A DNA stretch of 64,000 nucleotides from Candidatus Omnitrophota bacterium (GCA_903944345.1 CAJARJ010000018.1:120581-184580), one strand, 5' to 3'. Shown: positions 1,755 to 62,868, counted from the stretch's first letter. Numbers and translations: made by a program. Notes: generated by a model from the letters alone, not told the origin.

Positions 1755-1800
1755 ACCCACCTGAATTCTGAAAAAAGATATCCCCCTCTAGCCGTACCCC

Positions 1801-2655
1801 CTAGTCATAGTCTATTCCTAATCGATCAATAGTCAATACGGCCAGCATCCGGCAAGACGCGTTTCCGTAAAACGTTCCGGTAACCGGCATTGTCTGTAAC
1901 GGATCAGCCGCGGCGCTCAAAGCAAGGTAATGATGATCACACGCCACCCCCTGGGCCGGATCGAACCCCCGCCATCCGGCTCCGGGCAAGAAAACCTCCA
2001 CCCAGGAATGAAGGTCCGCAGGGCCAGCCGCATCATCATTCAAGTAGTAACCGCTGACATACCGGCTGGCAATCCCCATCCGGCGGCAAAGAGCCATCGC
2101 CAAAACTGCGAAGTCCCGGCAACAGCCCTTGCGTTCCTTTAAAGTGAAAGCTGGTGCCCAGGCGGCACCCTCATTGCGCTGTTCATAAGAAAAGCCGTTG
2201 CAAACAGCCCGGCACAAGTTCGTCAGAAAAGAAAGCGTGTCCTGATTGCTGTCGGCAGCAAGACTAGCCGCAAAATCCGCGAGGGTGGATATTTCTTCCC
2301 GGTCCATATACGGCACAAGCGCAGCGGCCTGTTCCGACGGATAGACCATTGGCAATCGGGCACACGATACCGGATAGAAAATGAAGTGCAACGGATTAAA
2401 AGGTTCCACTCGCACCACCAACTCGCTGCGTATTTCCAAAAGATCGCAAGCCTTCCGAAACCAGGCCAGCATAACACGATCCCCGCCCGCATCCAGAACA
2501 CTGCTTGTCCCCGCCGGCTCCGGAGTAACTTTGAAGTCGTGCGAGTCAACACAACAGGTGCCCAGTCGCGGAAAAAGACGCAAATAATGCGGATCAAGCA
2601 CCACTTTGTCTGTATAGCGATAACTGGTCTGATGAACAATGCGAAAAGAAGTCAT
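1801..2655 (-). CDS. Transglutaminase-like cysteine protease (Bact_transglu_N plus transglutaminase core)
   Basis: MTSFRIVHQTSYRYT matches the Bact_transglu_N start. The GCCRDFA catalytic Cys motif and a HSWVEV His motif are present. The start is set at the internal Met so that it abuts the Anbu stop at 2657; the ORF track extends it to 2724. Confidence 0.85.
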   Translation of the reverse strand: MTSFRIVHQTSYRYTDKVVLDPHYLRLFPRLGTCCVDSHDFKVTPEPAGTSSVLDAGGDRVMLAWFRKACDLLEIRSELVVRVEPFNPLHFIFYPVSCARLPMVYPSEQAAALVPYMDREEISTLADFAASLAADSNQDTLSFLTNLCRAVCNGFSYEQRNEGAAWAPAFTLKERKGCCRDFAVLAMALCRRMGIASRYVSGYYLNDDAAGPADLHSWVEVFLPGAGWRGFDPAQGVACDHHYLALSAAADPLQTMPVTGTFYGNASCRMLAVLTIDRLGIDYD

Positions 2656-2656
2656 C

Positions 2657-3400
2657 TTACTGCTGCTGCCCCTGTTCATAATTTTCAAGCAACTCATTGG
2701 CCCAGTCCTCGGGAAACTCCTCAATACCCTGAGAAATTTTTGCCTGCCACCAGTTCGAATAGCGCATCATCTGCTCGTGGGTCAACTGCTGGGTGGCCAT
2801 GTAAAAACTGTTCTTCCGGCAAAGAATCAGGTCAACCGGGTACCCGACGTCATTCGAACTCACCTGCGTCGCATTGAATGAAAGGAATCCCACTTTCATG
2901 GCAAAATTGAGGCTGGACTCATACCGCAGGGCGCGATCCAGGATCGGCTTACCATGGCTCGTATTGCCGATAATAAAATAAGGATTCGCATCGCCCACCT
3001 CCACCCAGTTGCCCTCGGGGAAAACCATAAAGAGTTTATGCTCCGGGTCGTCCTCAAGCTGTCCGGCAATAAGCGCGTGAATATTGAAATCATAATGCGC
3101 CGCTTCAAGCGCCTTGCGGTCTTCATCGCTTACCCGACGGATCTGTGCTCCGAAAGCATTCACCAACTGGTAGAGCTTGCGATACTCGAAACCGGACTCT
3201 TCCACTATCTCGTTAAAGTAAATCATGGCCTTGTCGCGCAGCGCCCGCAGGCCGGAGGTCATGAAAAAAACGGCATACTTGCCTTTTTTCTGCTGAATAA
3301 TAACCTTTTTGGCTGTCAGCGTCTGATTACCCGTAGTAATCCGCGTATCTGCCAGTCCAATCAACCCCTCTTTTACCTTGATCCCGAGACAATATGACAT
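2657..3400 (-). CDS. Anbu (ancestral beta-subunit) proteasome-type peptidase
   Basis: The N-terminus MSYCLGIKVKEGLIGLADTRITTGN matches the Anbu signature (T/S-YCLGI...D-T/S-R). Its length of 247 aa and its position within the ATP-grasp/Alpha-E operon also fit. Confidence 0.8.
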   Translation of the reverse strand: MSYCLGIKVKEGLIGLADTRITTGNQTLTAKKVIIQQKKGKYAVFFMTSGLRALRDKAMIYFNEIVEESGFEYRKLYQLVNAFGAQIRRVSDEDRKALEAAHYDFNIHALIAGQLEDDPEHKLFMVFPEGNWVEVGDANPYFIIGNTSHGKPILDRALRYESSLNFAMKVGFLSFNATQVSSNDVGYPVDLILCRKNSFYMATQQLTHEQMMRYSNWWQAKISQGIEEFPEDWANELLENYEQGQQQ

Positions 3401-3415
3401 AAAGCTCCGCTTCTG

Positions 3416-4357
3416 TTAATGCACCTGATTAAAAAACGTATGGAATATTTCTTCCCCAAGGCAGTTTAGCCTTACCTGAAAATCATCCAGATACTCGTGT
3501 AACCCGTGATGAACCACATCATCTACATCATTAAAACTGAACCGGGCAATGATCTTGCCCAGCTCTTTCTCGGCCGCATTACCGAACGCTCCCACGGGAG
3601 CGCCGGAAATGGCATGTAACGAACGATCCGCCTCCAGCAGCGAGAAATGGATAGCTCGCGGAAACTCCCGGTCAAAAACTAGCAGTTCCAGGATATTGCG
3701 AAAATCCATCCCCCCGTATTTCTTGCGATACACCTCATAAGCGCTCGTCGACTTGAGCAGCGCCGACCACTGCAACAGGTCAATCGCAGTCCCGACATCC
3801 TCGATTCTGGGCAGCAGATAAAAATACTTCATGTCAATGATCCGGGCCGTCTTGTCTGCCCGCTCGAGCAAGCGCCCGAGATTGGCAAAATGATACGACT
3901 CGTTATGCATAAGCGTTGAATCCATAATACCATTAAACAAGTGCGTCCCGTTCTTGATATCACGATACAGGTCAGACAAGTTCCCGTGCCTCTTCATCGT
4001 CATATCCTTCACAGACAAATAAAGTTCGTTTATCTGACGCCACATCTCGCTGGAAATAATCTCGCGCACCGTCCGTGCATTCTCCCTCGCCTGGGTCAGG
4101 CAACTCAGGATGGAATTGGGATTATTTCTGTTGAACGTCAGAAACTCAACAACCGCCTCGCGGGAATACTCGCCGTACTGGGATTCAAACAGAATGTCAT
4201 CCCCGGTAACACGCACCAGCGGTTGCCACTGTTCCGGCAAATCCCTGGGCAAATCGATACTTAACGAAATATTAACATCCATAAACCGGGCATAATTCTC
4301 CGCCCGTTCGATGCAACGATTCATCCAGTAAATAGAATCCGCCACCCGACTAAGCAT
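3416..4357 (-). CDS. Alpha-E domain protein (COG2307)
   Basis: MLSRVADSIYWMNRCIERAENYARFMDVN is a typical Alpha-E start. The ATG overlaps the upstream stop in the sequence ATGCTTAG, which suggests translational coupling. Confidence 0.8.
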   Translation of the reverse strand: MLSRVADSIYWMNRCIERAENYARFMDVNISLSIDLPRDLPEQWQPLVRVTGDDILFESQYGEYSREAVVEFLTFNRNNPNSILSCLTQARENARTVREIISSEMWRQINELYLSVKDMTMKRHGNLSDLYRDIKNGTHLFNGIMDSTLMHNESYHFANLGRLLERADKTARIIDMKYFYLLPRIEDVGTAIDLLQWSALLKSTSAYEVYRKKYGGMDFRNILELLVFDREFPRAIHFSLLEADRSLHAISGAPVGAFGNAAEKELGKIIARFSFNDVDDVVHHGLHEYLDDFQVRLNCLGEEIFHTFFNQVH

Positions 4358-5807
4358 GATCCACGCTCCCTTCCGCATTGCTCAGAACCCACGTATCTTT
4401 GGAACCGCCGCCCTGGGAAGAATTAACAACAAGCGACCCCTTGCACAAAGCAACACGGGTAAGCCCTCCCGAGAGAACCAGCGGTTCTTTTCCGAACAGG
4501 ATAAACGGCCGCAGATCAACATGCCGGCCTTCCAGCCCGTTGCCAATGAGCGTCGGAACCCGGGAAAGCGCCATGATCGGCTGAGCGATATAATTACGGG
4601 GGTCCTTCCTGATCTTGCCGATAAAATCCTCCTGCTGCGCCCGGGTGGAGGCAGATCCGACCAGCATGCCGTACCCGCCCGATTGACCGGATTCCTTGAC
4701 AACCATTTTCTCTATATTGGCAATAACATGCTCCCGTTCTTGCGGACGCCAGCACAAATACGTCGGGACATTGGGCAGGACAGGATCCTCGTGCAAATAA
4801 TACCTGATCATATCGGGCACAAAAGCGCAAATAACCTTGTCATCCGCCACCCCTGTACCGGGCGCATTGGCAAGCACCACCCGCCCTTTACGATACACAT
4901 CAAACAGTCCGGGCACGCCCAGCAGGGAATCGGAACGAAACACCTGAGGATCCAGCGACTCGTCGTCTACCCGACGATAAATTACATCAACCTGTTTAAG
5001 TCCACGGGTTGTCCGCATACAGCAAACCCCGTTATCCACAACAAGATCCCGCCCTTCGACCAGCTCCACCCCCATTTGCTGGGCCAGGAACGAGTGTTCA
5101 AAATAGGCAGAATTGTAAATACCCGGTGTCAGCACCACCACGTTCGGTTCCGGCACATCAGAGAGATATTCCAGCATCTCCAGAAGGCGCAGCGGGTACG
5201 TATTGACCGGACACACGTGGGTTCGCTCAAAGACTCCCGGGAACACGCGCTTCATGATCTCGCGATTCTCCAGAACATATGACACGCCGGAAGGAACACG
5301 GCAGTTATCTTCCAGCACATAATAGTGCCCGTCAGAATGGCGAATAAGATCAATCCCGCTGATATTGACCCAGCGGTTCCTGGGCGGATGGATTCCTTCG
5401 CAAGCCTTGAGATATCCCGACGAAGATTCAATGATCTCCTGCGGGACAACCTTGTCTTTAATCACGAGTTTCTTGCCATAGACATCATCAAGGAACGCAT
5501 CCAGTGCACGGACGCGCTGGATCAACCCCCGCTCGATCCCGCTCCATTCTTCGGCAGAAACGATCCTGGGCAGAAGGTCAAAGGGCATGGTGCGCTCGAC
5601 CCCTTCTCCCTCGGAATAAACGTTAAACGTAATGCCGCGGGCGATATAAGTTCTTTCGGCCGCGTGCTGTTTGGCCCTCAACTCATCCAGACTTATTGCC
5701 TGCAGATCATTAATAAAGGAACGGTAAGCCGGACGGACATCGCCGGAAGGGAAAAAGACCTCGTCGTAGAAACCGTCGGACTGATAGGACTGCAGTAGAT
5801 CTTTCAT
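4350..5807 (-). CDS. Circularly permuted ATP-grasp amidoligase (COG2308)
   Basis: MKDLLQSYQSDGFYDEVFFPSGDVRPAYRSF is a characteristic start. A GGGAGG ribosome binding site lies 6 nt upstream of the ATG at 5807. The ORF track's 5843 start is a TTG. Confidence 0.85.
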   Translation of the reverse strand: MKDLLQSYQSDGFYDEVFFPSGDVRPAYRSFINDLQAISLDELRAKQHAAERTYIARGITFNVYSEGEGVERTMPFDLLPRIVSAEEWSGIERGLIQRVRALDAFLDDVYGKKLVIKDKVVPQEIIESSSGYLKACEGIHPPRNRWVNISGIDLIRHSDGHYYVLEDNCRVPSGVSYVLENREIMKRVFPGVFERTHVCPVNTYPLRLLEMLEYLSDVPEPNVVVLTPGIYNSAYFEHSFLAQQMGVELVEGRDLVVDNGVCCMRTTRGLKQVDVIYRRVDDESLDPQVFRSDSLLGVPGLFDVYRKGRVVLANAPGTGVADDKVICAFVPDMIRYYLHEDPVLPNVPTYLCWRPQEREHVIANIEKMVVKESGQSGGYGMLVGSASTRAQQEDFIGKIRKDPRNYIAQPIMALSRVPTLIGNGLEGRHVDLRPFILFGKEPLVLSGGLTRVALCKGSLVVNSSQGGGSKDTWVLSNAEGSVDHA

Positions 5808-5962
5808 CCCGGCCTCCCTGATATAATAAAAAAAGCCCGACAAAAGAAAATTCTTTTGCCGGGCTCCATTACCCCTGAAAACAACATCAATATCGTTTCA
5901 ATCGTCACTATATCGGCATATGCGTCCGCTGTCAAGAAAAGTAAAACCTCTGCCGGCCTTTT

Positions 5963-7003
5963 TCATCTGCTGCCGTTTGCTAAACTCATCCCTTTAAGGT
6001 AGCCGAACCCGACCAGGCGGCAATGCTCTTCATCCCACAGGCGAAACGACAACGAACGAAAACTGTCCCGCAACGTAACTGGCGTGATCTTCTGAAAAAC
6101 AGGATTTTCCAGGTAGCACTTTTCCAGTAAATAATTGGGAATCCGGGGGTTCAGATGGTGAATGTGATGAAACCCTATATTGCCAGTAAACCATTGCAAT
6201 ACCCTGGGGAGTTTATAAAATGAGCTCCCCTTAAGCGCTGCGGTAACGTAGCTCCACCTATCGCTACGCTCCCAATAAGCTCCCTCAAACTGATGCTGCA
6301 CATAAAATATCCATACGCCAACAATCGCTGCTACCGTAATTGAGGGTATCTGGATCAAAAGAAATGCCTTCCACCCCACCAAGAATATCAACCCCGCAGC
6401 AACGAGCACAATGCCCAGATTGGTAAGGTGAATCCCCCTGCGGGCGCCCCGGTCCGTACTGCCTGACGGGATCCGGTGCAACACAAGAAAAAGAAACGGA
6501 GGAATGACTGTAAACAGAAATAGCGGATTCCTTAGAAAACGATAGGCCCAGCGCCTGTAACGGGGTGCCTGCAGATACTCGGATACGGTCATAGTCCACA
6601 CACAGCCGAAACCACGGCCATCAAGATTTCCGGATGACATGTGATGTCGATTGTGTTCCTCCCGCCAGGGAGCATAGGCAGTATGAATAATAACCCCGGT
6701 AATAACCCCCAGCAACTGATTCGCCCACAAGGACTTGAAAAATGCCCCGTGTACACAGTCGTGAAATATGATAAAGACCCGAACCAGAAAACCTCCCGCC
6801 AGAATCGCCAGCGCAAGGGTCAGCCAATACGATACCTGCAGACTAACGAACATGAGATACCAAACAATGGCATACGGGACAATCGTATTGACAATCTGCC
6901 AAAGACTCGCTCCCAGCCGGGGTTTTTCATATTTGGTAACCAGCCCAACCAGGAACCGTGCAAATACAGCGTCATTTTCTTTACCAGAGGTATTGTTACC
7001 CAT
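5963..7003 (-). CDS. Membrane fatty-acid desaturase
   Basis: Three histidine boxes are present: HDCVH, HNRHH and HHIHH. The protein is strongly hydrophobic. The likely start is MGNNTSGK. Confidence 0.85.
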   Translation of the reverse strand: MGNNTSGKENDAVFARFLVGLVTKYEKPRLGASLWQIVNTIVPYAIVWYLMFVSLQVSYWLTLALAILAGGFLVRVFIIFHDCVHGAFFKSLWANQLLGVITGVIIHTAYAPWREEHNRHHMSSGNLDGRGFGCVWTMTVSEYLQAPRYRRWAYRFLRNPLFLFTVIPPFLFLVLHRIPSGSTDRGARRGIHLTNLGIVLVAAGLIFLVGWKAFLLIQIPSITVAAIVGVWIFYVQHQFEGAYWERSDRWSYVTAALKGSSFYKLPRVLQWFTGNIGFHHIHHLNPRIPNYLLEKCYLENPVFQKITPVTLRDSFRSLSFRLWDEEHCRLVGFGYLKGMSLANGSR

Positions 7004-7294
7004 AACAACCTTTCTCCAAGGCAATAGCAAATGTCCCTTATAGTTGAGTCGTTCGAAAACAGGAACGGATTACATATTGTTTTGATCTTCTCTGTGCTCA
7101 CTTCCCGCTCAAAACAAATGTAAGGTCTGAAGATCGCAGCTTGACCAACAGGACAGGAAAAAACAACCCCCACCATAAGGAGGATGTATAAGCAACTGTG
7201 ACATCTACGATAAAAGCTGTTCAAGCCCGTCCACGGAATTCTGTAACGGAAGTCCACTGGGAAGCAGCCTTTAGGCAACTGCTAACAAAAGCTC

Positions 7295-7331
7295 GAACCC
7301 TTGCCCTACTCGAGGAGCAAGACAAGGGTTC
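7295..7331 (-). terminator. Putative intrinsic terminator after the 7373-8308 gene
   Basis: Inverted repeat gaacccttg...caagggttc, followed on the minus strand by GAGCTTTTGTT. Confidence 0.35.
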
Positions 7332-7372
7332 ATGATTCAAGTTCGGGACACACAATTGTTTTCTGATGTTTT

Positions 7373-8308
7373 TTAGAGAGCAGACTTCGTTTCCTGGCAC
7401 CGTATCAGCTCGACAAGTTCTTTTAATTTCCCGGAACCAATTCCCCGGCCAAGCTTGAAATGCACAATCCCTGCGCGTAACTGCATCCTGACAGTCTTGC
7501 GGATATTGATAGGAAAAAAACAATGCTTAACCGCACCGCAGTTGAAAAGGCGCGCAAGAACAAACTGACCCGCCTCAAACAACACCTTAAAATCTGACAT
7601 CTTTAGCATCGAGATCTTGTTCTGACGACTGATATAGGCGTAGTGATCGTAACAATTGCACCCGTTCGAACAATAGGTATTGGCTATAACAATAATTTTC
7701 TGCTGACTCTCAAGCGCCAGTTCCTTTAACAACGACTCTCGACGAGAATCCTGAGGGGTAAAAATAACCGCGTCATACTGCCTGCAATCAGCACGATACA
7801 TGGTCATGGTCTCCCGGGGAGTCAATATTCTGTCCGGAGCCACATACTTCGTACACGAACCAAAATAAGCCAACCTGTTGCCAAGGTCATGCCGAAGCCG
7901 GTCTTCAAGAACCCTGTTATTGATAATGACTCCGTTACGAACTCCGTACGTCTCGCCAAGCTCTGCCAATTTTCTTATCGGCTTCAACGCCGAGTCTTGC
8001 AGATCATTCGCTTCTACAAAAAGGTTGGTCAGTACAGCGTGAAAGGGAATACCTTTGGCATTGATCATTCTCACCGTACGAAAAAACTTGTCGGAAACCC
8101 GATCAAGCTGGGGCCTGCCCATTCTGAACAGAAACCTGTCCCACAAAAACTGTCCGTCCAGAGTGTAATTAAACCGCCCGCCGTGCAGCGGTGAATCCGG
8201 AATGCCCCCAAAGACACGTATTGCAACATCCGGCAACCGATTAAAGCGATCCAGCTGATTAAGAGAATACGAATATAGCGGCACTTCTATTGAATACTTT
8301 TTGGACAT
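7373..8308 (-). CDS. Hypothetical protein with Cys-rich motifs (CSNGCNCYDHYAY; FNCGAVKHC)
   Basis: A 311-aa ORF with no recognisable family. It sits downstream of the outer membrane protein gene on the same strand. Confidence 0.5.
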   Translation of the reverse strand: MSKKYSIEVPLYSYSLNQLDRFNRLPDVAIRVFGGIPDSPLHGGRFNYTLDGQFLWDRFLFRMGRPQLDRVSDKFFRTVRMINAKGIPFHAVLTNLFVEANDLQDSALKPIRKLAELGETYGVRNGVIINNRVLEDRLRHDLGNRLAYFGSCTKYVAPDRILTPRETMTMYRADCRQYDAVIFTPQDSRRESLLKELALESQQKIIVIANTYCSNGCNCYDHYAYISRQNKISMLKMSDFKVLFEAGQFVLARLFNCGAVKHCFFPINIRKTVRMQLRAGIVHFKLGRGIGSGKLKELVELIRCQETKSAL

Positions 8309-12781: not shown

Positions 12782-12802
12782 ATAATGGTGGAGGTGCCGG
12801 GA
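12782..12802. repeat. ssrA 3'-terminal att core (partner of the 11395-11415 repeat)
   Basis: See the repeat at 11395-11415. Confidence 0.5.
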
Positions 12803-13175
12803 ATTGAACCCGGGTCCTTGTGTGTCTAAGATTGAGCATCTACATGCGTAGGCCGTCTTTAAATCTTGTTTTACGCGTTTCAACGGTCAAACCCGCGTAA
12901 AACCAGCCCTCTTGATCTTGTCCTTCCGGCGAAGGCATCGGAAAGACCAGCCTGTTTAGTTCCAATAGTAAAGCGACAGACTCCCTTTACTACAGGGCTT
13001 AGTCTTTTATTAGACTAAGGCTGGTGCTTCAGCTCCGGCCAAAATGGCCTCGGCTTCGGCGACGACGTCGTAGTTGTCGTTTGCGTTTGTTTTTTGATGG
13101 ATTTATACGAGGCCAACCATCATCCCCGGCATGCCACCCAGCCCCGGCTCACTCAAGTCGAGACCAGTCACCCCC
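12786..13175 (-). ncRNA. ssrA: tmRNA (SsrA)
   Basis: The 5' end is GGGGGGUGA (reverse complement of tcacccccc at 13168-13176). The 3' T-arm and acceptor end is GGGUUCAAUUCCCGGCACCUCCACCA (reverse complement of 12786-12810). The acceptor stem carries a G3.U wobble. A tag frame reads GCA AAC GAC AAC TAC GAC ... TAA TAA. smpB lies 560 bp away. Confidence 0.85.
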
Positions 13176-14588: not shown

Positions 14589-14740
14589 GTTTCCTCCCGC
14601 TATTAGATACGTCGGAGATTATCGCTCATTTCCCTCGTTTGGCAAAGAAAAATCGTAGCTGTTCTGTTATTCGAAAGGCCTTCTATTGACAGACCGGGGG
14701 ACAACGTCTATACTAACGCACGTTTTTCCCCGTCTTCTAC

Positions 14741-14821
14741 GCGGAAGTGGTGAAATGGCAAACACGCAGGTCTCAGAAGCCTGTGCCGCAAGGCTTGAGG
14801 GTTCAAGTCCCTCCTTCCGCA
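14741..14821 (+). tRNA. tRNA-Leu (anticodon CAG)
   Basis: Acceptor stem GCGGAAG/CTTCCGC. Anticodon stem CAGGT/GCCTG with loop CTCAGAA, giving anticodon CAG. Long variable arm GCCGCAAGGC. T-arm GGGTTCAAGTCCC. The structure resembles E. coli tRNA-Leu. Confidence 0.8.
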
Positions 14822-54897: not shown

Positions 54898-55790
54898 AAA
54901 TAAATTTCCCCTGCCACCCTTTTTATGACACGGCCGTCATCCAGAGCCAGCATAAGGCCGCCATCATCTGCAAGCCCCAATGCCGTTGCTGTCAGCCTTT
55001 TGCCTCCAGAGTCGAAACTTACCCGACAACCGGCAACCGCGGAGCGACGCTCCCATTCGCGTAAAACAACACTCCACCCGCAGTCTGATACAGAGAAATA
55101 TCTGCGCTCAAAAACACGCAAGAATGCCTGCAGAAGGACACTCCTGCCGCAATTGCCAACAGCCACCTCGCTTAACCCTATTGCTGTCGAGGACAGCTCT
55201 CCGGAAAGCGGGGCTATATTGAGCCCGATGCCAAGAATTACAAACTCAACACATTCTTTAGCCACTCGGGATTCCAGCAGAATACCTGCCAGTTTGCGCC
55301 CGTTGACCAGAATATCGTTAGGCCATTTGATGCGACAGTCGATACCTGCCGCGTCCTGCAAAGTTTCAGCCAACGCGACCGCAGAAAGCAAAGTCAGCAG
55401 CGGCGTCACAGTCGCCGGCCACGCGGGACGAAGAAGTAATGAAAAGTACATTCCGTTTCCGACAGGAGACACCCACGCACGCCCCAGGCGTCCACGCCCT
55501 TTGGTCTGGGCTTCAGCCGTAACCAGCGTCCCCTCGGGAGAACCAGACTCTGCCAGACGAAGCGCCTCATCCATAGTGGAAGAAAGGACGGGATGACAAT
55601 ACACCTGCCGGCCCATAATCCGGGTGTTAAGGCCGCAAATAATCCCTTCAGCCGAAAGGTTCGGGGCAACCGTGTTTGTACCCGGAGAGTCCGATGTCTG
55701 CCTGTTTATCATCCTGTCATAGTAAAGAGAGATAATTGGCTTGTCAACGGGGATCAAAGCCGAGGAAACCCAAAAGATCTTCCTGTGCAT
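54894..55790 (-). CDS. birA: Biotin--protein ligase (group I BirA, no N-terminal HTH)
   Basis: GRGRLGRAW and KWPNDIL motifs. The ATG at 55790 overlaps the upstream giant ORF by 47 nt. An alternative start is MINRQ at 55712. Confidence 0.8.
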   Translation of the reverse strand: MHRKIFWVSSALIPVDKPIISLYYDRMINRQTSDSPGTNTVAPNLSAEGIICGLNTRIMGRQVYCHPVLSSTMDEALRLAESGSPEGTLVTAEAQTKGRGRLGRAWVSPVGNGMYFSLLLRPAWPATVTPLLTLLSAVALAETLQDAAGIDCRIKWPNDILVNGRKLAGILLESRVAKECVEFVILGIGLNIAPLSGELSSTAIGLSEVAVGNCGRSVLLQAFLRVFERRYFSVSDCGWSVVLREWERRSAVAGCRVSFDSGGKRLTATALGLADDGGLMLALDDGRVIKRVAGEIYL

Positions 55791-58700
55791 GAACCGCGAT
55801 AATCACCGGCGAGAGGCCGGGCGTGTCACGTAGCGCCTTGAGCTGGGCTGAATCGATGTGAAACCGCAGAGCTCTGCCGGAGAACCCGACCTCCAGCCTG
55901 TCTGCCACAAGCCCGAGATCGACACCGCCAACAGGAGTGTCCGTTTCTGCGGCTTCGTTCGTAATCTGCACCGGGACAAAAAGATTCTCAACTATCCCGT
56001 CTTTCAAGAAAACACCATCCGGGACATTCTGCGCTGCAGCCTGGTAATTCATTTTTATCGGCTCATGCAAATGCAACGTCAGCTGCGGTTGGCGGTAAAG
56101 ACCCGCGCTTACCTTGACCAGAACCGGCGCGCCATTTTCATCCTGCATAGGCAAAGCACCGTAAGCATCAGAATACATAAAAGAAGAACGCCCGGGGAAA
56201 AGACTCAGATTAAAAGAACGCAAATCATTAAAACTGCGCATGATCTCCTGCGCCGGTCGATGCGAGGTGGTCACAAGCACGGGCAGTCCGGTCCGGAAAG
56301 AAAGGGCCTCAAACAGTCGATAAAGCCTGAGAATATCCCTTGTCCCAAACTGTTCGCTCTCCTCGATGACAATCGCCGGAAACTTTCTGCTTTCTTCCTG
56401 CACAATCATAAGCCTGACCATCCTCCGGGGCGGACTAACCTGCCCGTTCTCGTCAAGGAATGTCGCCGCCTTTACCGTTCCGTTAGAAATATACCCCGTT
56501 AGGCCGCGGTTGAGATCATTGGAATACGTGACACTCTGGCAAGCCGTTGACCCGGGATAATTGCCGATGTTCAGCAAAGCATAATAATCATCCGTAAAAG
56601 ACGCCCGCAAGCCTTCCCCCAGATCTATCTCAAGCGTTTCTTCCCAGGAACGTATCTTTTTAACCCTGGACTTAAGTTCATCGAATCCCTCGACTGCCAT
56701 CAGTTTCCTGTAAAAGCCCGCCTCGGATGTTACCCCGAAAGCCGCCTCCAGTCTGCCTTGATCTTCCGGAGCAAGCTCCCCCATAAAAATGGCCACGGCC
56801 TCGTCCAGAACCTTGAGATAATCCGGACTGGCATACTTCCATTGCCGGAACTCCCCGCGCGCTTCCGCCAGCAAGGCATCAAACATGTTGACGTAAATCT
56901 CCTCATCCTGGACACGTGACAAATACGTGCTGAGCAAATCCTTTATGCTGCGCTTCTCATGATCCAGCCATGAACTACGAGGATTATCAGGAGAAAAGTA
57001 CTCCCTTAACTCGGAAAATTCCTCCCCGCTAACCGGACGCAAGCGGCCGACCCGTTCTGCAAGAATGATCAAGTCTTTATCGGCATACATTTTTAGAAAA
57101 TCGCCGATGGCCCTGCGGTCGATCTGACCGGATCCGGCCTGCGCCAGGATATCAGCAGCCCGGGCGAACAGACCTTCACCGGAAGGATCATCAAGAGCCC
57201 GGAAAACCTTGTCAAACGCGCTTAACAATCCGGATAATTCTTCCGCCCAGGACGCCAGATTTGTTCTTGCCGGAAATCCAATTTCCGAATGCAGGAATTG
57301 CATCATCGCCGTAAAAACAGCCGTTTTTTCAGGATTCTTCTCAACGGACAATCGCGCTAGTGATTCATAAAGCCTGTTCTTGATCAACGACGATCCCGGT
57401 GCATTGTAAGCCGCCCTCATAAGAACCGCGAACAGCTGCATATCCTCCCGGGACTTTGCAAGCCGCAACAAAGGCTCAAAAAACACATGCGGTATCTGCG
57501 TCTGAACCGAAACAAGCACTCCCCCATCCTGATCAACAACTCCGGATTTGAGCTCTTCCAGCCCGGCCAGAAGTTTCGGGTCTCTTTTGGTTGCGGCCGC
57601 AAGGCTGCCGGTGACCTGTTCTTGCACGGCAACAGGCAACTGGCGCAAGAATGCAAAGCCATATTCCCGCAGGCTGTCTGCGGCTGAGAAAGAGTCCTCA
57701 TGATCTGCAGACGAGAGATCCCGGAATTTCTGAAGTCTGAGGGCCATGTCAGGATTCCCGGCATTGGCCAGGACTGTGCCAATAAACTTGCCTTTACCGT
57801 CAACCTTCGACAATGTATTCAGTTTAAATTCAATAATGGGTAATAACCCGATCTGTGCCAGACGCTCCTGCGGCAAATACCTTTCGACAGCTCTGACAAG
57901 ATTGGGCAAAGTCGCAGACTGTTTGACCCCTTCAAGGAAGCCCGGAACATCTACTGGAGCCGCAGTCCCTGCCGCCAGAAGAATGTCCCCCAGAAATACA
58001 ATCTGATCGCTGAGGACAAACAGGTTGGAAACAATAAACTCAAACTCGCGCATCAGCTGATCAATATCAAGATCTTCCCTTGCCTTAAACCTGGCCCTTA
58101 AATCTGTTCTTAATTCTTCCAGGGACTGTTTGGGATCATCCCGAATAAACGCCAGAATCCGGGACAACTCCTCAACCGATACCCAGCCCAACAAACGCTG
58201 GATGTCCTCCAGCTTGACGGCATACTGTTGCGAATCGTTATAAAAGAACTCTTCGAAAACCTTCCTGTCGGCCCCGACATCCCTTCCCTCCGAAAAAAGA
58301 AGATCAAACAGCTCGTTCTTCTGGTCTTCTCCCAGCCTTCTGATCGCAGGATGTTCCACCTTCTCACGGTTGAGTTCCCTTGCGACCCAGTTAATCTGGC
58401 CACGGAACTCCGGATCGTAGACCCGGCGGACATCCCCGCGCTCCTTAAGATAGCGGGCGACCTTGATGTTAACACCAAACAACCGCGCAATCTGGACATC
58501 CGGCAGAGCACGAATCACGCCTAAAAGCACAACCGCCGTTTCAGGATCATTGCGCACAAGAGCTTCGATAGCCTTGCCCGTCACCCCGGGGAAATGGCCC
58601 GCCAGAAACTGCAACCGGGCAAGAATTAACCCGTATGTTCTGGATGCTGATTCTGTTCCTGCAACAGATCTGGCGAGAAACTCCGTATGGAAGATATCCA

Positions 58701-61700
58701 GCAAACTTTTAACAACCAGTCGGGATTGACGATCTCCGTTATAGGATAATTTTCTTAAGATTTCTATCTCCCACTCTCCCGCTGTCTGCTGTGAGGACAA
58801 ATCATTCTCTGTGCGCTCCTGTGCGAGGGCCCGCGCCAGACGCTGAACCATGACCTGACGTAAACCATCGGCAACGCTATCCTCAAGCGCTCCGGCCTGA
58901 GTGAGAATACCACTCGCCTCGCGGAGAAGAACTTCATTTGCCCCGCCGTTGAGAACAATATCCAGAAGAACATTCCCGGGCCGGGCCGCGACTCTGGCTC
59001 TTATTAAGCGCCAGGACTCCAGTGTCATCTCATCCCCTGCATTCACCGCAAGCTGGTATGCTTGTTGAATCTCCGCCTCATATGACCCCAGGTCAAAAGC
59101 CTCCGGCAACTCATCCCACTTCTGCAGAATCTGTTGCGGATCATAAGCCAGAAGAAACATCAAGATCCTGCGTAAATCATCCGGATTCTTTCTCTCGATC
59201 CTGTCCAAAAGGCCTTTCCAGACTTCAGCCTGGCGATCTGGCTCTGTTCCGGAAACAATAACCGGAGCTAACAACATTAAACTATCGTATGCCCATCGGT
59301 TTTGACTGCACAAACGCTCGATATCCGCCCAGGAATCAGCGAGCAAATCCGGCCCCAGAGACTCACCCAGAACAGAAAGAAATCTGGCCGGTGAGCTGTC
59401 ATCCTGCCGCAAACCGTACAAATAATGAAAATAATCCTCGGCATCCGCGATTAATTCTTCTGCCCGGTGCCCGAATGCCTCCATAAAAACAACCACAAAT
59501 TCAAAAAGCGTAACTCTGTCTATCCCGGACACCTCTTGCCCGGTCATCTGCCCAACCACGGGGACGACTAGCTCCTGATGTGCCAGATACCATTCCCCCG
59601 CACCACCGGACATAAACCGCAACAGAAGCGGCCTGACACCCGTACGCTCGCTCATAGGCAGCAGGCTCTCAAATATCCCCGCCCGGCTGACGATCAGCGG
59701 AAGCCAGGTTCGCCATCGAACAAGCCGATATTCCGCACTCTTAAGAGCCTCGGACATAAGAGCAACCACAAGATTTCTGTCATAACTTCCCGTCGGTGGA
59801 AATCTCCCTGCGATCTGCGCCACAGCAGGGTTAATCTCTTGCAAAAACGTCTCCAGTTCCATATCAGAAGCGAGCAAGGCGACAAGATCATAGGTATACT
59901 CCTCAACATAACCCAAAGAGTCTCCCCATTGATTGAGTCCCGAAACAATCTGCTCTCCCAGCAAACGTGCATCAACACGAAAAACATCTTTCCCATAAAC
60001 TGAAACCAGTGCTCTGATAAAACCCAGAACGGCGGGTCTGTGCAGGTGCTGGATTGTATTTAACGGCCCGCAGAGCGAATCAATCCAGTCGTTGAACTTC
60101 CGCCCGGAGATGCCGATATCGTTCCCTGTTCTCTCAAGCACTGTCAAAAAAACCGTTTCAAGAAAACCTCTGTCCGCGCCAGCCTTCTCCGGAAGAAAGA
60201 AACCAAAGATATCTTCATCCGATTCTCCCCAAAAATTCTGCAGTCCGCGAGACTCCTTCCAGGCCAGAATACTGGCGACACGTCGCAGCTGAACATCAAT
60301 CCAGGCATCTAATCCGACCGTTTTTTCGACCAGGGCAAGGAACCCCCCCGTAAAATATGCCCAGTGCTTGCGGATTTTCTCCCTTCCCATATATTCAACG
60401 GCCACGCCCAGTAAATAAATCCTTCTTTCCGCATCTTTCTGCCCCAGCCATGGCGGAAGATGCGTTTCAAAGTCTTCCCATGCGTCAGCACCTTCCGGCT
60501 GAGCACGCAATCCGATAAGATTCTTCACGGCTGACTCAAGGCTCCAATCGGACACCTCAGGCGAAGCGGCTGCGGCCAGCTGATGCGTAAAGTTCAGAAT
60601 GGAAGAAGCGTGGGCAATAAAGCGTGCTCCTCCGATTCTCCCTTTCATTCCCTTTAGAACACCATTAAGAACCCCAACAAATTTTTTTCTTGATTGCGAC
60701 GGTAATGTGGCAAACGTTTCCGCCCATTGGCCGCTTAGTTCCGGCCAGAATGCTATGAAATTCCGTTCCCCTTCAAGGACATCCGCAACGCTCCGGATCA
60801 CCGAAACATAATCTTCTCCCAATCCGGGATATTTTCCGTCATCATCAACTTTTCTGACAATAGCTGCCACCCCCTCGATAAATCCTTCCTGTTTCAGCCA
60901 GTCCCGGGGGTATTTCGCATGAACTTCTTTCCACACCGCAGCAATTCTTGCGCCATCATCTCCCGTTTCAAGAACAAGCGCAAGCATATCCGACAAACGC
61001 TCCAGAGTCTCTGCCTCTTGACCGGAAGAACTCTCTTCCAGCATCAACTCCAGCATATTGCGCAAAGCATAACTTTTGACCTGATCGGCATGCACAGCAA
61101 ACAGTTTTCTGGCAGCTTCAAACAGGGTTGCCCCATTATTACGCCACCCCTCCATGCCTGCTTTCTGTGCCAGGGAAACAACTGCCCCGGGCAAGGCACT
61201 GTAAAGCATGCCGGAGAGCTGTCTGGGCGGAGTTCCTGCAAAAAATGACCAGACGCTGTCAAATAGTTCCGGATTTTCCTGTAACGGGAAATAAACCTCT
61301 TCCACAAGACGCTTTGCGAGAAACACTCCCACTCCGTTCCTGAGCAAGCCAAAAATACGCCGCCAGATCTCGGGAGGAATCCGTTCAGGATTCTCCTGCC
61401 ATTCTGCCGGATGCCATAACAGCTGCAGCCCGGAACGTATATCCTCAGCCTCGCTCAACAAGCCATTATCACGCCAGAATTCTACCTGACTGCGAAAAAA
61501 GGCAAGATCAGCCATTGAAGGAGAACCGAACATCCCGGCCTGATAAACAATGGCTTTATTCAGCCTCCGGGCAAGTGAACGTGCGCGCGAACCAACCTTG
61601 GGCTCCTCTGCACTCTGACCGTGCACTCCTGCTACCGCTGTCTGCAAGGTGCGAACGGATTGACGCAAGGAAGGTTTTAACATGACCCGCAGCCCATAAT

Positions 61701-62868
61701 ATGTACCCTTTATCGCCCCGCCCATCCGGCTTAAAAAACCGGAACGATCTGCTGTGGTAATCTGCATTGCTTTATCCATCTCACCGGCAAAAGAAAATCC
61801 ACCGGCAAAATATTTGCGCGGGATAAGCTCTCCCGAATACACATCCTGCTCGTCTCTGATTATGTCGTAAGCCCCCTGTTTGAATGACTGGATATAACGC
61901 TGCCAGATCTTTTCACTTTCATCGGGATCCGCCATGTCAACCCCCGCCACTCTGCCGCGATCTACGTACACCCGGGACAACAAACTCTCCTTGATCTTGC
62001 GCTTGTACCACGCCGAGAGGACGAGCGAATAGTACGCCTGCCGCAAGCGGGCAAACCCGGCGCCATAATTAACCTCGTGCTCAAGAACCGGGAGTACCAC
62101 TTCACGAAACACCGGCCTGACCAACTCCTGCATAGAACCTTCAGAAGGAACACTCTCTTCTTGCGATTGAAACGAATTATTTTTCGTAACCGCCAGATAA
62201 TCTGTTTCCAGAAGCACTTTAAGCCTGGTCTCGGTCACATAAGCTGCCACCTCGGTCTGTCCATCCTCTCCATCTGATTGCCTCTCAAAAATAGCTGCCC
62301 GATCAGGCATGATCCAGACTTTATTAAACGTATCAACCGGAATATCTGTCGTACCGTAGCGTGCAAATGCCCGCGCGTAAACCTTCTGCCAGAACGCTTT
62401 CCCTGCCTCCTCTTGCGGATAAAGTAAAGAAGAGGCCAGCTGCTTGAGCAAATAATCTTGCGCCAGCAAATCCCGCCCCATCTCGGTCTGTCCAAACTCG
62501 TTGACTATAATGCGGCTTTTTTCATAAGGCGAAAGGTTGACCCACAGATCTTTCTCCGGTATGGTCAAGCCCGCCAAAAAGTACCGAATCAGGCGTGGGG
62601 CTTCTGTCTGCAAAATCTCATCTGAAGTCTTTCCGGAGGGAGGAGCATCACTGGCAGCCAAAATAAAATCCAGCCGAAGAGGATCGGCTTCCTGCACCCT
62701 GACTCCTTTAAGAACTGGCGGAGAATAATCGACACTCAAGGCCACCCTGGTTCCTGGCACCGGCAGCAGGGACGCCGACTGCCCGTAGACAGGAGGCATG
62801 CTACTGGTCGTAAACAAAGCCGCAAGCACAGTCAGACAGACTATTCTTTTGACTCCGTTAGACATCAT
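55744..62868 (-). CDS. Giant (2374 aa) secreted protein of unknown family, predicted mainly alpha-helical
   Basis: A single uninterrupted ORF. Signal peptide MMSNGVKRIVCLTVLAALFTTSSMPPVYGQSA. An AAGGAGAGA ribosome binding site directly precedes the ATG. The composition is dominated by L, A, E, R and is low in G and P. No recognisable catalytic or repeat motifs were found. The C-terminal ~330 aa have a different composition. Confidence 0.7.
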   Translation of the reverse strand: MMSNGVKRIVCLTVLAALFTTSSMPPVYGQSASLLPVPGTRVALSVDYSPPVLKGVRVQEADPLRLDFILAASDAPPSGKTSDEILQTEAPRLIRYFLAGLTIPEKDLWVNLSPYEKSRIIVNEFGQTEMGRDLLAQDYLLKQLASSLLYPQEEAGKAFWQKVYARAFARYGTTDIPVDTFNKVWIMPDRAAIFERQSDGEDGQTEVAAYVTETRLKVLLETDYLAVTKNNSFQSQEESVPSEGSMQELVRPVFREVVLPVLEHEVNYGAGFARLRQAYYSLVLSAWYKRKIKESLLSRVYVDRGRVAGVDMADPDESEKIWQRYIQSFKQGAYDIIRDEQDVYSGELIPRKYFAGGFSFAGEMDKAMQITTADRSGFLSRMGGAIKGTYYGLRVMLKPSLRQSVRTLQTAVAGVHGQSAEEPKVGSRARSLARRLNKAIVYQAGMFGSPSMADLAFFRSQVEFWRDNGLLSEAEDIRSGLQLLWHPAEWQENPERIPPEIWRRIFGLLRNGVGVFLAKRLVEEVYFPLQENPELFDSVWSFFAGTPPRQLSGMLYSALPGAVVSLAQKAGMEGWRNNGATLFEAARKLFAVHADQVKSYALRNMLELMLEESSSGQEAETLERLSDMLALVLETGDDGARIAAVWKEVHAKYPRDWLKQEGFIEGVAAIVRKVDDDGKYPGLGEDYVSVIRSVADVLEGERNFIAFWPELSGQWAETFATLPSQSRKKFVGVLNGVLKGMKGRIGGARFIAHASSILNFTHQLAAAASPEVSDWSLESAVKNLIGLRAQPEGADAWEDFETHLPPWLGQKDAERRIYLLGVAVEYMGREKIRKHWAYFTGGFLALVEKTVGLDAWIDVQLRRVASILAWKESRGLQNFWGESDEDIFGFFLPEKAGADRGFLETVFLTVLERTGNDIGISGRKFNDWIDSLCGPLNTIQHLHRPAVLGFIRALVSVYGKDVFRVDARLLGEQIVSGLNQWGDSLGYVEEYTYDLVALLASDMELETFLQEINPAVAQIAGRFPPTGSYDRNLVVALMSEALKSAEYRLVRWRTWLPLIVSRAGIFESLLPMSERTGVRPLLLRFMSGGAGEWYLAHQELVVPVVGQMTGQEVSGIDRVTLFEFVVVFMEAFGHRAEELIADAEDYFHYLYGLRQDDSSPARFLSVLGESLGPDLLADSWADIERLCSQNRWAYDSLMLLAPVIVSGTEPDRQAEVWKGLLDRIERKNPDDLRRILMFLLAYDPQQILQKWDELPEAFDLGSYEAEIQQAYQLAVNAGDEMTLESWRLIRARVAARPGNVLLDIVLNGGANEVLLREASGILTQAGALEDSVADGLRQVMVQRLARALAQERTENDLSSQQTAGEWEIEILRKLSYNGDRQSRLVVKSLLDIFHTEFLARSVAGTESASRTYGLILARLQFLAGHFPGVTGKAIEALVRNDPETAVVLLGVIRALPDVQIARLFGVNIKVARYLKERGDVRRVYDPEFRGQINWVARELNREKVEHPAIRRLGEDQKNELFDLLFSEGRDVGADRKVFEEFFYNDSQQYAVKLEDIQRLLGWVSVEELSRILAFIRDDPKQSLEELRTDLRARFKAREDLDIDQLMREFEFIVSNLFVLSDQIVFLGDILLAAGTAAPVDVPGFLEGVKQSATLPNLVRAVERYLPQERLAQIGLLPIIEFKLNTLSKVDGKGKFIGTVLANAGNPDMALRLQKFRDLSSADHEDSFSAADSLREYGFAFLRQLPVAVQEQVTGSLAAATKRDPKLLAGLEELKSGVVDQDGGVLVSVQTQIPHVFFEPLLRLAKSREDMQLFAVLMRAAYNAPGSSLIKNRLYESLARLSVEKNPEKTAVFTAMMQFLHSEIGFPARTNLASWAEELSGLLSAFDKVFRALDDPSGEGLFARAADILAQAGSGQIDRRAIGDFLKMYADKDLIILAERVGRLRPVSGEEFSELREYFSPDNPRSSWLDHEKRSIKDLLSTYLSRVQDEEIYVNMFDALLAEARGEFRQWKYASPDYLKVLDEAVAIFMGELAPEDQGRLEAAFGVTSEAGFYRKLMAVEGFDELKSRVKKIRSWEETLEIDLGEGLRASFTDDYYALLNIGNYPGSTACQSVTYSNDLNRGLTGYISNGTVKAATFLDENGQVSPPRRMVRLMIVQEESRKFPAIVIEESEQFGTRDILRLYRLFEALSFRTGLPVLVTTSHRPAQEIMRSFNDLRSFNLSLFPGRSSFMYSDAYGALPMQDENGAPVLVKVSAGLYRQPQLTLHLHEPIKMNYQAAAQNVPDGVFLKDGIVENLFVPVQITNEAAETDTPVGGVDLGLVADRLEVGFSGRALRFHIDSAQLKALRDTPGLSPVIIAVHAQEDLLGFLGFDPR

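Follow-up and report, generated by a model that had tools for sequence, protein, structure and literature searches.

What is an operon built around Anbu for, and what switches it on? Anbu is a widespread proteasome relative whose function has been open since 2008, and here we consider both questions for a locus in a 64,000-nucleotide (nt) stretch of DNA from a Candidatus Omnitrophota bacterium (GCA_903944345.1, CAJARJ010000018.1:120581-184580), referred to in its whole length as the window. On the minus strand, positions 5807..1801 hold four long open reading frames (ORFs) encoding a circularly permuted ATP-grasp protein (cpATP-grasp), Alpha-E, Anbu and a transglutaminase-like enzyme. The locus is almost certainly a genuine Anbu operon of the Anbu-2 subtype. 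The four-gene operon itself has already been described and is nothing new in kind; the new point is the leader in front of it, a candidate target of ANTAR-domain antitermination.

The Anbu operon was described by Valas and Bourne in 2008 and by Iyer et al. in 2009. Three structural studies of Anbu found no substrate and no activity, and a 2021 survey still gave it no known function. Our literature search for recent functional papers on the system yielded only a 2026 preprint, in which the mycobacterial homologues Rv2411c and Rv2567 were used solely as negative controls. An earlier note on this DNA, written by a model from the sequence, had placed the genes in the Anbu neighbourhood predicted by comparative genomics, with substrate and role still open, and in this it agrees with the literature.

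An Anbu operon of the Anbu-2 subtype

The four genes are as follows.

5807..4350, minus strand: cpATP-grasp of the COG2308 type, 485 amino acids, by Pfam and PDB matches
4357..3416, minus strand: Alpha-E, 313 amino acids, by a match to PF04168
3400..2657, minus strand: Anbu, a proteasome beta-like N-terminal nucleophile hydrolase of the Anbu-2 subtype, 247 amino acids, by matches to solved Anbu structures
2655..1801, minus strand: transglutaminase-like cysteine enzyme, 284 amino acids, by Bact_transglu_N and Transglut_core matches

All four ORFs lie where the earlier note had put them, and the families it had proposed are borne out, by Pfam profiles for three of the proteins and by solved-structure matches for Anbu. 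The note had mentioned neither the strand, nor the Anbu-2 subtype, the serine nucleophile or the regulatory leader. The cpATP-grasp matches both circularly permuted ATP-grasp families, CP_ATPgrasp_2 at 374 of 374 profile positions (E=1.9e-161) and CP_ATPgrasp_1 at E=3.2e-137, and it aligns to PDB entry 3n6x over residues 14-476 (E=2.9e-157). Alpha-E matches PF04168 over its full length (E=1.1e-96), its ER motifs (E17-R18, R91-E92 and E165-R166) are invariant among 53 homologues, and its AlphaFold model is all-helical with a pLDDT of 90.4; neither sequence search nor Foldseek found a solved relative. All 53 aligned homologues begin with MLS, which places the Alpha-E start at 4357 and not at the ATG further upstream, at 4378. 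The transglutaminase-like protein combines Bact_transglu_N (E=1.3e-14) with Transglut_core (PF01841, E=1.2e-21) and retains an intact triad of C179 (in GCCRDFA), H216 (in HSWVEV) and D232 (in GFDP). NCBIfam holds no model for any of the four operon proteins.

The genes are packed as an operon would be, as the earlier note had said, with successive spacings of -8, 15 and 1 nt. At the junction of cpATP-grasp and Alpha-E, ATGCTTAG, the note had described the ATG of Alpha-E as overlapping the TAG of the ATP-grasp gene; the reading frames do overlap, by 8 nt, but the two codons share no bases. Alpha-E and Anbu are separated by 15 nt, and Anbu and the transglutaminase gene meet as TAA-G-ATG with a 1-nt gap. 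Terminator prediction on the window found no convincing terminator inside the four-gene operon. The spacing is that of translationally coupled genes, and all four proteins keep their catalytic or motif residues intact.

Anbu is identified by structure more clearly than by profile. The Pfam Proteasome match is marginal (22.9 bits), and the only PDB matches at E<=0.01 are Anbu entries (5loy, 5nyj, 5nyf, 5nyw and 5lox, E=2e-31 to 3e-19), with the alignment to solved Anbu proteins reaching residue 230 of 247; the protein is thus nearer to Anbu than to HslV or the 20S beta subunits. An identical protein is present on 29 contigs. It has no propeptide: the N-terminus reads MSYC, with the nucleophile position directly after Met1. 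Codon 2 (3395-3397) encodes serine in place of the canonical Thr1, a replacement shared by 5 of about 115 relatives, among them the sister species at locus L001. D17 and K30/K31, corresponding to the catalytic Asp17 and Lys32/33 of the family, are invariant in 47 homologues.

Fuchs et al. 2017 (PMC5666114) divided Anbu into Anbu-1 and Anbu-2, the latter being taxonomically more restricted and having a distinct, basic S1 pocket with I20, A29 and arginines. In the window protein, the equivalents of the S1-pocket residues are I20, A29, T47, R51 and R54, the last three aligning with the Anbu-1 pocket residues T48, L52 and S55, and both arginines are conserved without exception in the 47 relatives of alignment A1. 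The signature SGLRxxRDK, which reads SGLRALRDK in the window, is also found in the Cytophagales locus L005, where Anbu-1 has TAGNLATTQ. Based on I20, A29, R51, R54 and this signature, we assign the window protein to Anbu-2. It is about 50% identical to relatives from Bacteroidota, Nitrospirota, Nitrospinota and Scalindua and about 30% identical to Anbu-1. Two invariant arginines in the S1 pocket suggest a specificity for an acidic P1 residue.

To what extent is the gene order a property of the system? The earlier note had called it fixed, with the transglutaminase gene after Anbu. We compared 98 loci that encode relatives of the window Anbu. In 41 of them Anbu directly follows Alpha-E and is directly followed by the transglutaminase gene, so the arrangement is not due to chance; 18 more have Alpha-E upstream and no transglutaminase gene within 400 nt after Anbu, and in five the transglutaminase lies upstream of Anbu. 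Ten further close relatives, fetched by protein identity, all keep the order ATP-grasp, Alpha-E, Anbu, and eight of them the transglutaminase as well. The published canonical order, however, is the reverse at this point (ATP-grasp, Alpha-E, transglutaminase, Anbu), and the same canonical order occurs in Klebsiella (L096) and in L005, L067 and L072. The fixed order is therefore the habit of one clade, the Anbu-2 clade of the window, and not of the whole system.

Two of the related loci differ in other ways. At L090 (7781-14744), two small uncharacterised ORFs replace the transglutaminase gene after Anbu, and a second cluster 2 kb downstream encodes a cpATP-grasp, Alpha-E and a protein of about 1100 amino acids with transglutaminase and DUF2126 domains. 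At L002/L097, on a contig labelled Sedimentisphaerales (Planctomycetota), the Anbu protein is 80% identical to that of the window and the operon has no ANTAR-type leader; the label could reflect horizontal transfer or a binning error.

A leader with a candidate antiterminator

The region in front of the cpATP-grasp gene contains three elements.

5935..5907, minus strand: sigma-70-type promoter, TTGACA-17 nt-TATAGT, matching 11 of 12 consensus positions
5896..5861, minus strand: ANTAR-type dual hairpin, a candidate antiterminator, by covariance model and folding
5867..5825, minus strand: intrinsic terminator with a 16-bp stem and a U-run, by terminator prediction and folding

The promoter is one of two matches of this quality in the window; the other, at 14686-14714, precedes a transfer RNA (tRNA) gene on the plus strand (14741-14821). 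The terminator has a predicted folding energy of about -24 kcal/mol, and the whole leader a z of -5. Its U-run ends about 17 nt before the ATP-grasp ATG, and the space that is left fits only the Shine-Dalgarno sequence GGGAGG. A terminator placed between promoter and start codon inverts the usual layout, and this arrangement was found at none of 101 other called genes in seven related loci.

The first hairpin, P1, pairs 5896-5892 with 5885-5881 around the hexaloop AUUGAU (5891-5886). After a 6-nt linker (5880-5875), the second, P2, pairs 5874-5871 with 5864-5861 around the hexaloop AAUGGA (5870-5865). RNAalifold applied to the full leaders predicted P1, with its 6-nt loop, and the terminator, while the conserved segment between them, GGGUAAUGAAGCCC, folds as the 4-bp P2 with its hexaloop. 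The 3' strand of P2, GCCC, supplies the first four pairs of the terminator stem. When P1 and P2 are forced, the stem that remains has only 9 bp, is AU-rich and stands 4 nt away from the U-run.

These features are those of the RNA bound by ANTAR-domain regulators, which was defined as a pair of small hairpins whose hexaloops have A in position 1 and G in position 4 (A1 and G4), a linker of 5-12 nt and a P2 that overlaps the 5' part of a terminator (PMC3369931). Across 11 leaders, G4 is invariant in both loops, and A1 is present in 8 of the L1 loops and 9 of the L2 loops. Four of the five P1 pairs change on both sides, and none of 500 shuffles reached the observed covariation score; by pair counts, 91.9% of the cells of the dual-hairpin alignment are paired.

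A covariance model (R1) was built from the dual hairpin and searched against the window and 1.05 Mb of loci. In the window it gave a single significant match, at the leader (37.5 bits, E=7e-7). In the 1.05 Mb, all matches at E<1 lay just upstream of cpATP-grasp genes except the weakest (L021, 17 bits). The model also matched four loci on which it had not been trained (L013, L010, L009 and L089), where all eight loops have A1 and G4; at L089 the called gene start is too far upstream, and the terminator and true start come after the motif. Overall, about a dozen lineages have the dual-hairpin motif ahead of their orthologous operons. The complete series of promoter, P1, P2, terminator and start codon is found at L001, L004/L100, L011, L089, L090, L093, L094 and L098/L099, with differing genes upstream, and each of these loci has TTGACA-17-TATAxT at the equivalent place. 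At L009 (3989-4104) and L013 (2165-2253), two successive hairpin-plus-terminator modules stand before the ATP-grasp gene; they may represent ANTAR sites in tandem, like those of eut.

Taken together, the leader is probably an ANTAR-type attenuation device with a predicted antiterminator. Transcription would start at the strong sigma-70 promoter and by default stop at the intrinsic terminator, 20 nt short of the ATP-grasp start codon. Read-through would need an ANTAR-domain RNA-binding regulator that clamps the hexaloop hairpins AUUGAU and AAUGGA, with P2 sequestering the base of the terminator stem. The Anbu operon does not appear as an ANTAR target in the text or supplements of the survey that defined these substrates (PMC3369931).

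Other regulatory elements were also considered for the leader and rejected. An ATG-led frame that crosses the terminator might suggest attenuation by a leader peptide, but this frame is shifted by a 2-nt indel relative to L001 and has no Shine-Dalgarno sequence. Inspection of the sequence showed no GG-N10-GC element in register that could form a sigma-54 promoter, and between the terminator and the start codon there is no room for a promoter.

Function and rival explanations

What might the operon do once it is transcribed? The cpATP-grasp, probably with its constant partner Alpha-E, would use ATP to activate a carboxylate as an acyl-phosphate and join it to an amine through a peptide or isopeptide bond. 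Amide bonds in the product, or in tagged substrates, would then be cleaved or transferred by the transglutaminase-like enzyme and by Anbu. A cpATP-grasp from an Anbu operon releases phosphate from ATP in vitro.

The context of this chemistry is suggested by regulation. ANTAR regulons deal mostly with nitrogen (PMC3369931), and the Anbu-type clusters of Pseudomonas and Burkholderia are under the control of nitrogen starvation and NtrC: in P. putida, no other locus is induced by nitrogen limitation as strongly as the Anbu operon, and the cluster of cpATP-grasp, Alpha-E and transglutaminase in B. cenocepacia is NtrC- and sigma-54-dependent. As its physiological role we therefore favour the turnover of amides or peptides tied to the nitrogen supply, and with it the recycling of proteins or peptides. 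We put forward the combination of ligase and hydrolase chemistry with a nitrogen-linked role as tentative. The explanation as a whole, comprising operon identity, ANTAR attenuation and nitrogen-linked chemistry, we consider probable, a grade that is a compromise between its three parts.

Several observations weigh against this explanation. The window Anbu carries Ser1 and not the canonical Thr1. Published biochemistry has detected neither peptidase activity of Anbu proteins nor stable complexes between them and their operon partners, so the ligase and hydrolase chemistry is one that we infer from established knowledge of the families. As to the leader, position 1 of L1 is G in 3 of the 11 sequences, and P2 is a stem of just 4 bp, one of them U-G, that is conserved without covarying. 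The register of the 11-sequence alignment (A4) was set by hand. The close relatives L002/L097 have no leader. Finally, a search of the 64-kb window, of about 1 Mb of flanking loci and of the Pfam tables for 12 loci turned up no gene for an ANTAR domain (PF03861); one of the probes used was an approximate consensus.

The alternative that survives best concerns the product. The operon may make and mature a small peptide or amide metabolite instead of tagging or degrading proteins, with the ATP-grasp as synthetase and the transglutaminase-like enzyme and Anbu as processing peptidases, a view of Iyer et al. 2009 as summarised in PMC5666114. It fits the lack of an AAA+ unfoldase in the operon, the wide occurrence of the cpATP-grasp, Alpha-E and transglutaminase trio without Anbu, and the inactivity of Anbu on standard proteasome substrates. 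Against it, Anbu-1 binds proteasome inhibitors at Thr1 and has a multi-site ring architecture that argues for processive proteolysis, and no precursor-peptide gene is evident in the window operon. We give the metabolite alternative a modest probability, and the ligase may either mark proteins for Anbu or assemble a small peptide.

Returning to nitrogen recycling, a more specific form can be proposed, in which the Omnitrophota Anbu-2 operon is part of an ANTAR-controlled nitrogen regulon and performs an unfoldase-free, proteasome-like cycle of ligation and cleavage with acidic-P1 specificity. This is a speculative extension, and slightly less likely than the metabolite alternative. If it were true, the inducing signal, and hence the physiological context of Anbu, could be read from the sensor domain of the cognate ANTAR regulator. 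The ANTAR-type leader itself connects Anbu operons with nitrogen metabolism a second time, through a regulatory mechanism independent of the first and in a phylum remote from the Proteobacteria in which NtrC control was seen. It also makes the question of Anbu function testable, through the sensor domain of the ANTAR regulator and through a regulon drawn from the sites of the covariance model.

Two further alternatives concern the leader. The first involves the gene directly upstream.

5963-7030, minus strand: DesA-like fatty-acid desaturase, directly upstream of the leader

On this account, the hairpin and U-run would be the terminator of the desaturase gene or a constitutive dampener, the small hairpins would be due to chance, and no antitermination would be regulated. 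The terminator does lie on the strand of the desaturase, 129 nt past its stop codon; hairpins of this small, AU-rich kind occur widely, and no ANTAR gene was found in the neighbourhood. However, the promoter comes after the desaturase stop codon and before the terminator, and the 20 nt that follow the terminator leave space for nothing promoter-like. The desaturase is intact in the window and in L006 and is reduced to frame-shifted fragments in the conspecific loci L007 (6833-7373) and L008 (498-1038), where the promoter and leader are nevertheless unchanged, and elsewhere the leader persists behind unrelated upstream genes. The recurrence of A1/G4 hexaloops in independent lineages and untrained loci, together with a layout absent from all control genes, also speaks against this account, and we regard it as improbable. 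A functional link to the desaturase was itself rejected: the gene is a pseudogene in L007/L008 and absent from all other related loci, so its position was judged a coincidence. The desaturase found beside Anbu in Klebsiella is only 23% identical to that of the window.

A little less probable still is that the unit of 80-95 nt from promoter to terminator acts as a riboswitch for a small molecule or is a small RNA gene of its own. Its strong promoter and strong terminator would suit such an element, as would the spacing between the -10 element and the terminator's end, which stays at 81-96 nt in 10 of 11 leaders. Nevertheless, Rfam gave no family match to the leader even at E<=10, and beyond the two hexaloops and their closing pairs there is no conserved core able to form a ligand pocket; the conserved features are exactly those of ANTAR substrates. 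Rfam searches of the whole window at gathering thresholds and of the leader at E<=10 returned only transfer-messenger RNA (tmRNA), tRNA and terminator-like noise. The tmRNA gene lies at 12786-13175 on the minus strand (181 bits).

The last question is whether the operon has a fifth member, as the earlier note had suggested for the gene that follows it.

1754..<1, minus strand: DUF255/Thioredox_DsbH gene, 593 amino acids in full, cut by the window edge (E=7.8e-62)

The note had presented this gene as possibly co-transcribed and as adding a redox component. Co-transcription is plausible in this species: the gene starts 46 nt past the transglutaminase stop codon on the same strand, with no terminator predicted in the gap, and in L007 (11537-11542) and L008 the gap is only 6 nt. 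It is wider in the window (1755-1800) because of a 40-nt insertion, GGGGTACGGCTAGAGGGGGATATCTTTTTTCAGAATTCA, in the window strain. A conserved functional link finds no support. Among 55 loci with at least 2.5 kb of downstream DNA, DUF255 adjoins the operon in three, L006-L008, all with an identical Anbu protein, and because this adjacency is limited to one species, DUF255 is not a conserved component. The sister species at L001 has a pyruvate-kinase-like gene in its place, and nine further close relatives each have another neighbour; the genes at this position in close relatives include heme oxygenase, acyltransferase, YjbQ, BrnT, methyltransferase, LysM/YkuD protein and 2-oxoglutarate oxygenase genes. 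In L007/L008, the DUF255 gene is coupled equally closely to what lies downstream: it overlaps a DUF134 gene, after which come a small ORF and an ArsP permease gene, and this points to a separate module.

Genes for a thioredoxin, an HtrA-like protease and a peroxiredoxin stand immediately upstream of the ANTAR-type leader in related Omnitrophota (L098, 534-2699; L099, 524-2692). That DUF255 is a functional fifth component supplying redox chemistry is very unlikely, as the short gap and the L098/L099 redox genes, which lie outside the promoter and leader unit, are set against an adjacency confined to one species and absent from its sister.

A role in anti-phage defence was rejected, as PADLOC returned no matches for any of the five proteins. 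Elsewhere in the window, a very large ORF of 2374 amino acids occupies 55744-62868 on the minus strand.

Comparison with known systems

The closest counterpart is the canonical Anbu-1 operon of Proteobacteria and Cyanobacteria, represented by the P. aeruginosa PA1733 locus, Y. bercovieri and Klebsiella L096, which shares with the window the four families, their common orientation and tight linkage, and the lack of an AAA+ protein. It differs in its order (ATP-grasp, Alpha-E, transglutaminase, Anbu), in a hydrophobic or amphiphilic S1 pocket with TAGNLATTQ and Thr1 as nucleophile, and in its regulation, which relies on NtrC and sigma-54 with no ANTAR leader. In Klebsiella pneumoniae L096 (CP125156.1), the Anbu-1 operon spans 2426-8163 in the classic order, with a desaturase gene directly downstream of Anbu; 51 nt before its ATP-grasp start codon there is a sigma-54-like TGGCAT-N5-ATGCT, by pattern only.

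With Anbu-2, as described for C. hutchinsonii CHU_3460 and for Planctomycetes, Bacteroidetes, Verrucomicrobia and Deltaproteobacteria (Fuchs et al. 2017), the window protein shares I20, A29 and the basic S1 pocket. The arginines quoted for C. hutchinsonii are at 46 and 50, whereas those of the window are at the equivalents of 50 and 53. The window Anbu also has Ser1, and Omnitrophota is not among the phyla named in that study. The Anbu-2 locus of Cytophagales (L005) has the classic order, with the transglutaminase before Anbu, unlike the window.

The same ligase module with a transglutaminase-like partner is found in clusters that have no Anbu, such as the Rv2411c region of M. tuberculosis, I35_5080-5083 of B. 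cenocepacia and the second cluster at L090. In these, unlike in the window, the transglutaminase protein is often large and carries DUF2126.

The Pup-proteasome system of Actinobacteria (PafA, Dop and 20S) is comparable only by analogy, in that its genes for an ATP-dependent amide ligase, an amidase and a hydrolase of the proteasome family lie together. The system matters under nitrogen starvation. PafA and Dop adopt a fold like that of glutamine synthetase and not the ATP-grasp or transglutaminase fold of the window enzymes, and the window operon, unlike the Pup-proteasome system, has neither a gene for a Pup-like tag nor an AAA+ ATPase. According to the literature, Anbu forms an open split ring, described as dodecameric with a C-terminal helix H5, unlike the closed barrel of 20S.

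Finally, the leader resembles those of E. faecalis eutP, eutG, eutS and eutA, K. oxytoca nasF as well as P. aeruginosa amiE, with two A1/G4 hexaloop hairpins, a 6-nt linker and a P2 that overlaps the terminator. The P2 loop of the window, AAUGGA, fits AANGRR in the eut P2 consensus AGC-AANGRR-GCU (PMC3369931). In contrast to the known ANTAR leaders, the cognate ANTAR protein is here only presumed, the host belongs to Omnitrophota, and the genes that the leader would control are those of an Anbu operon.

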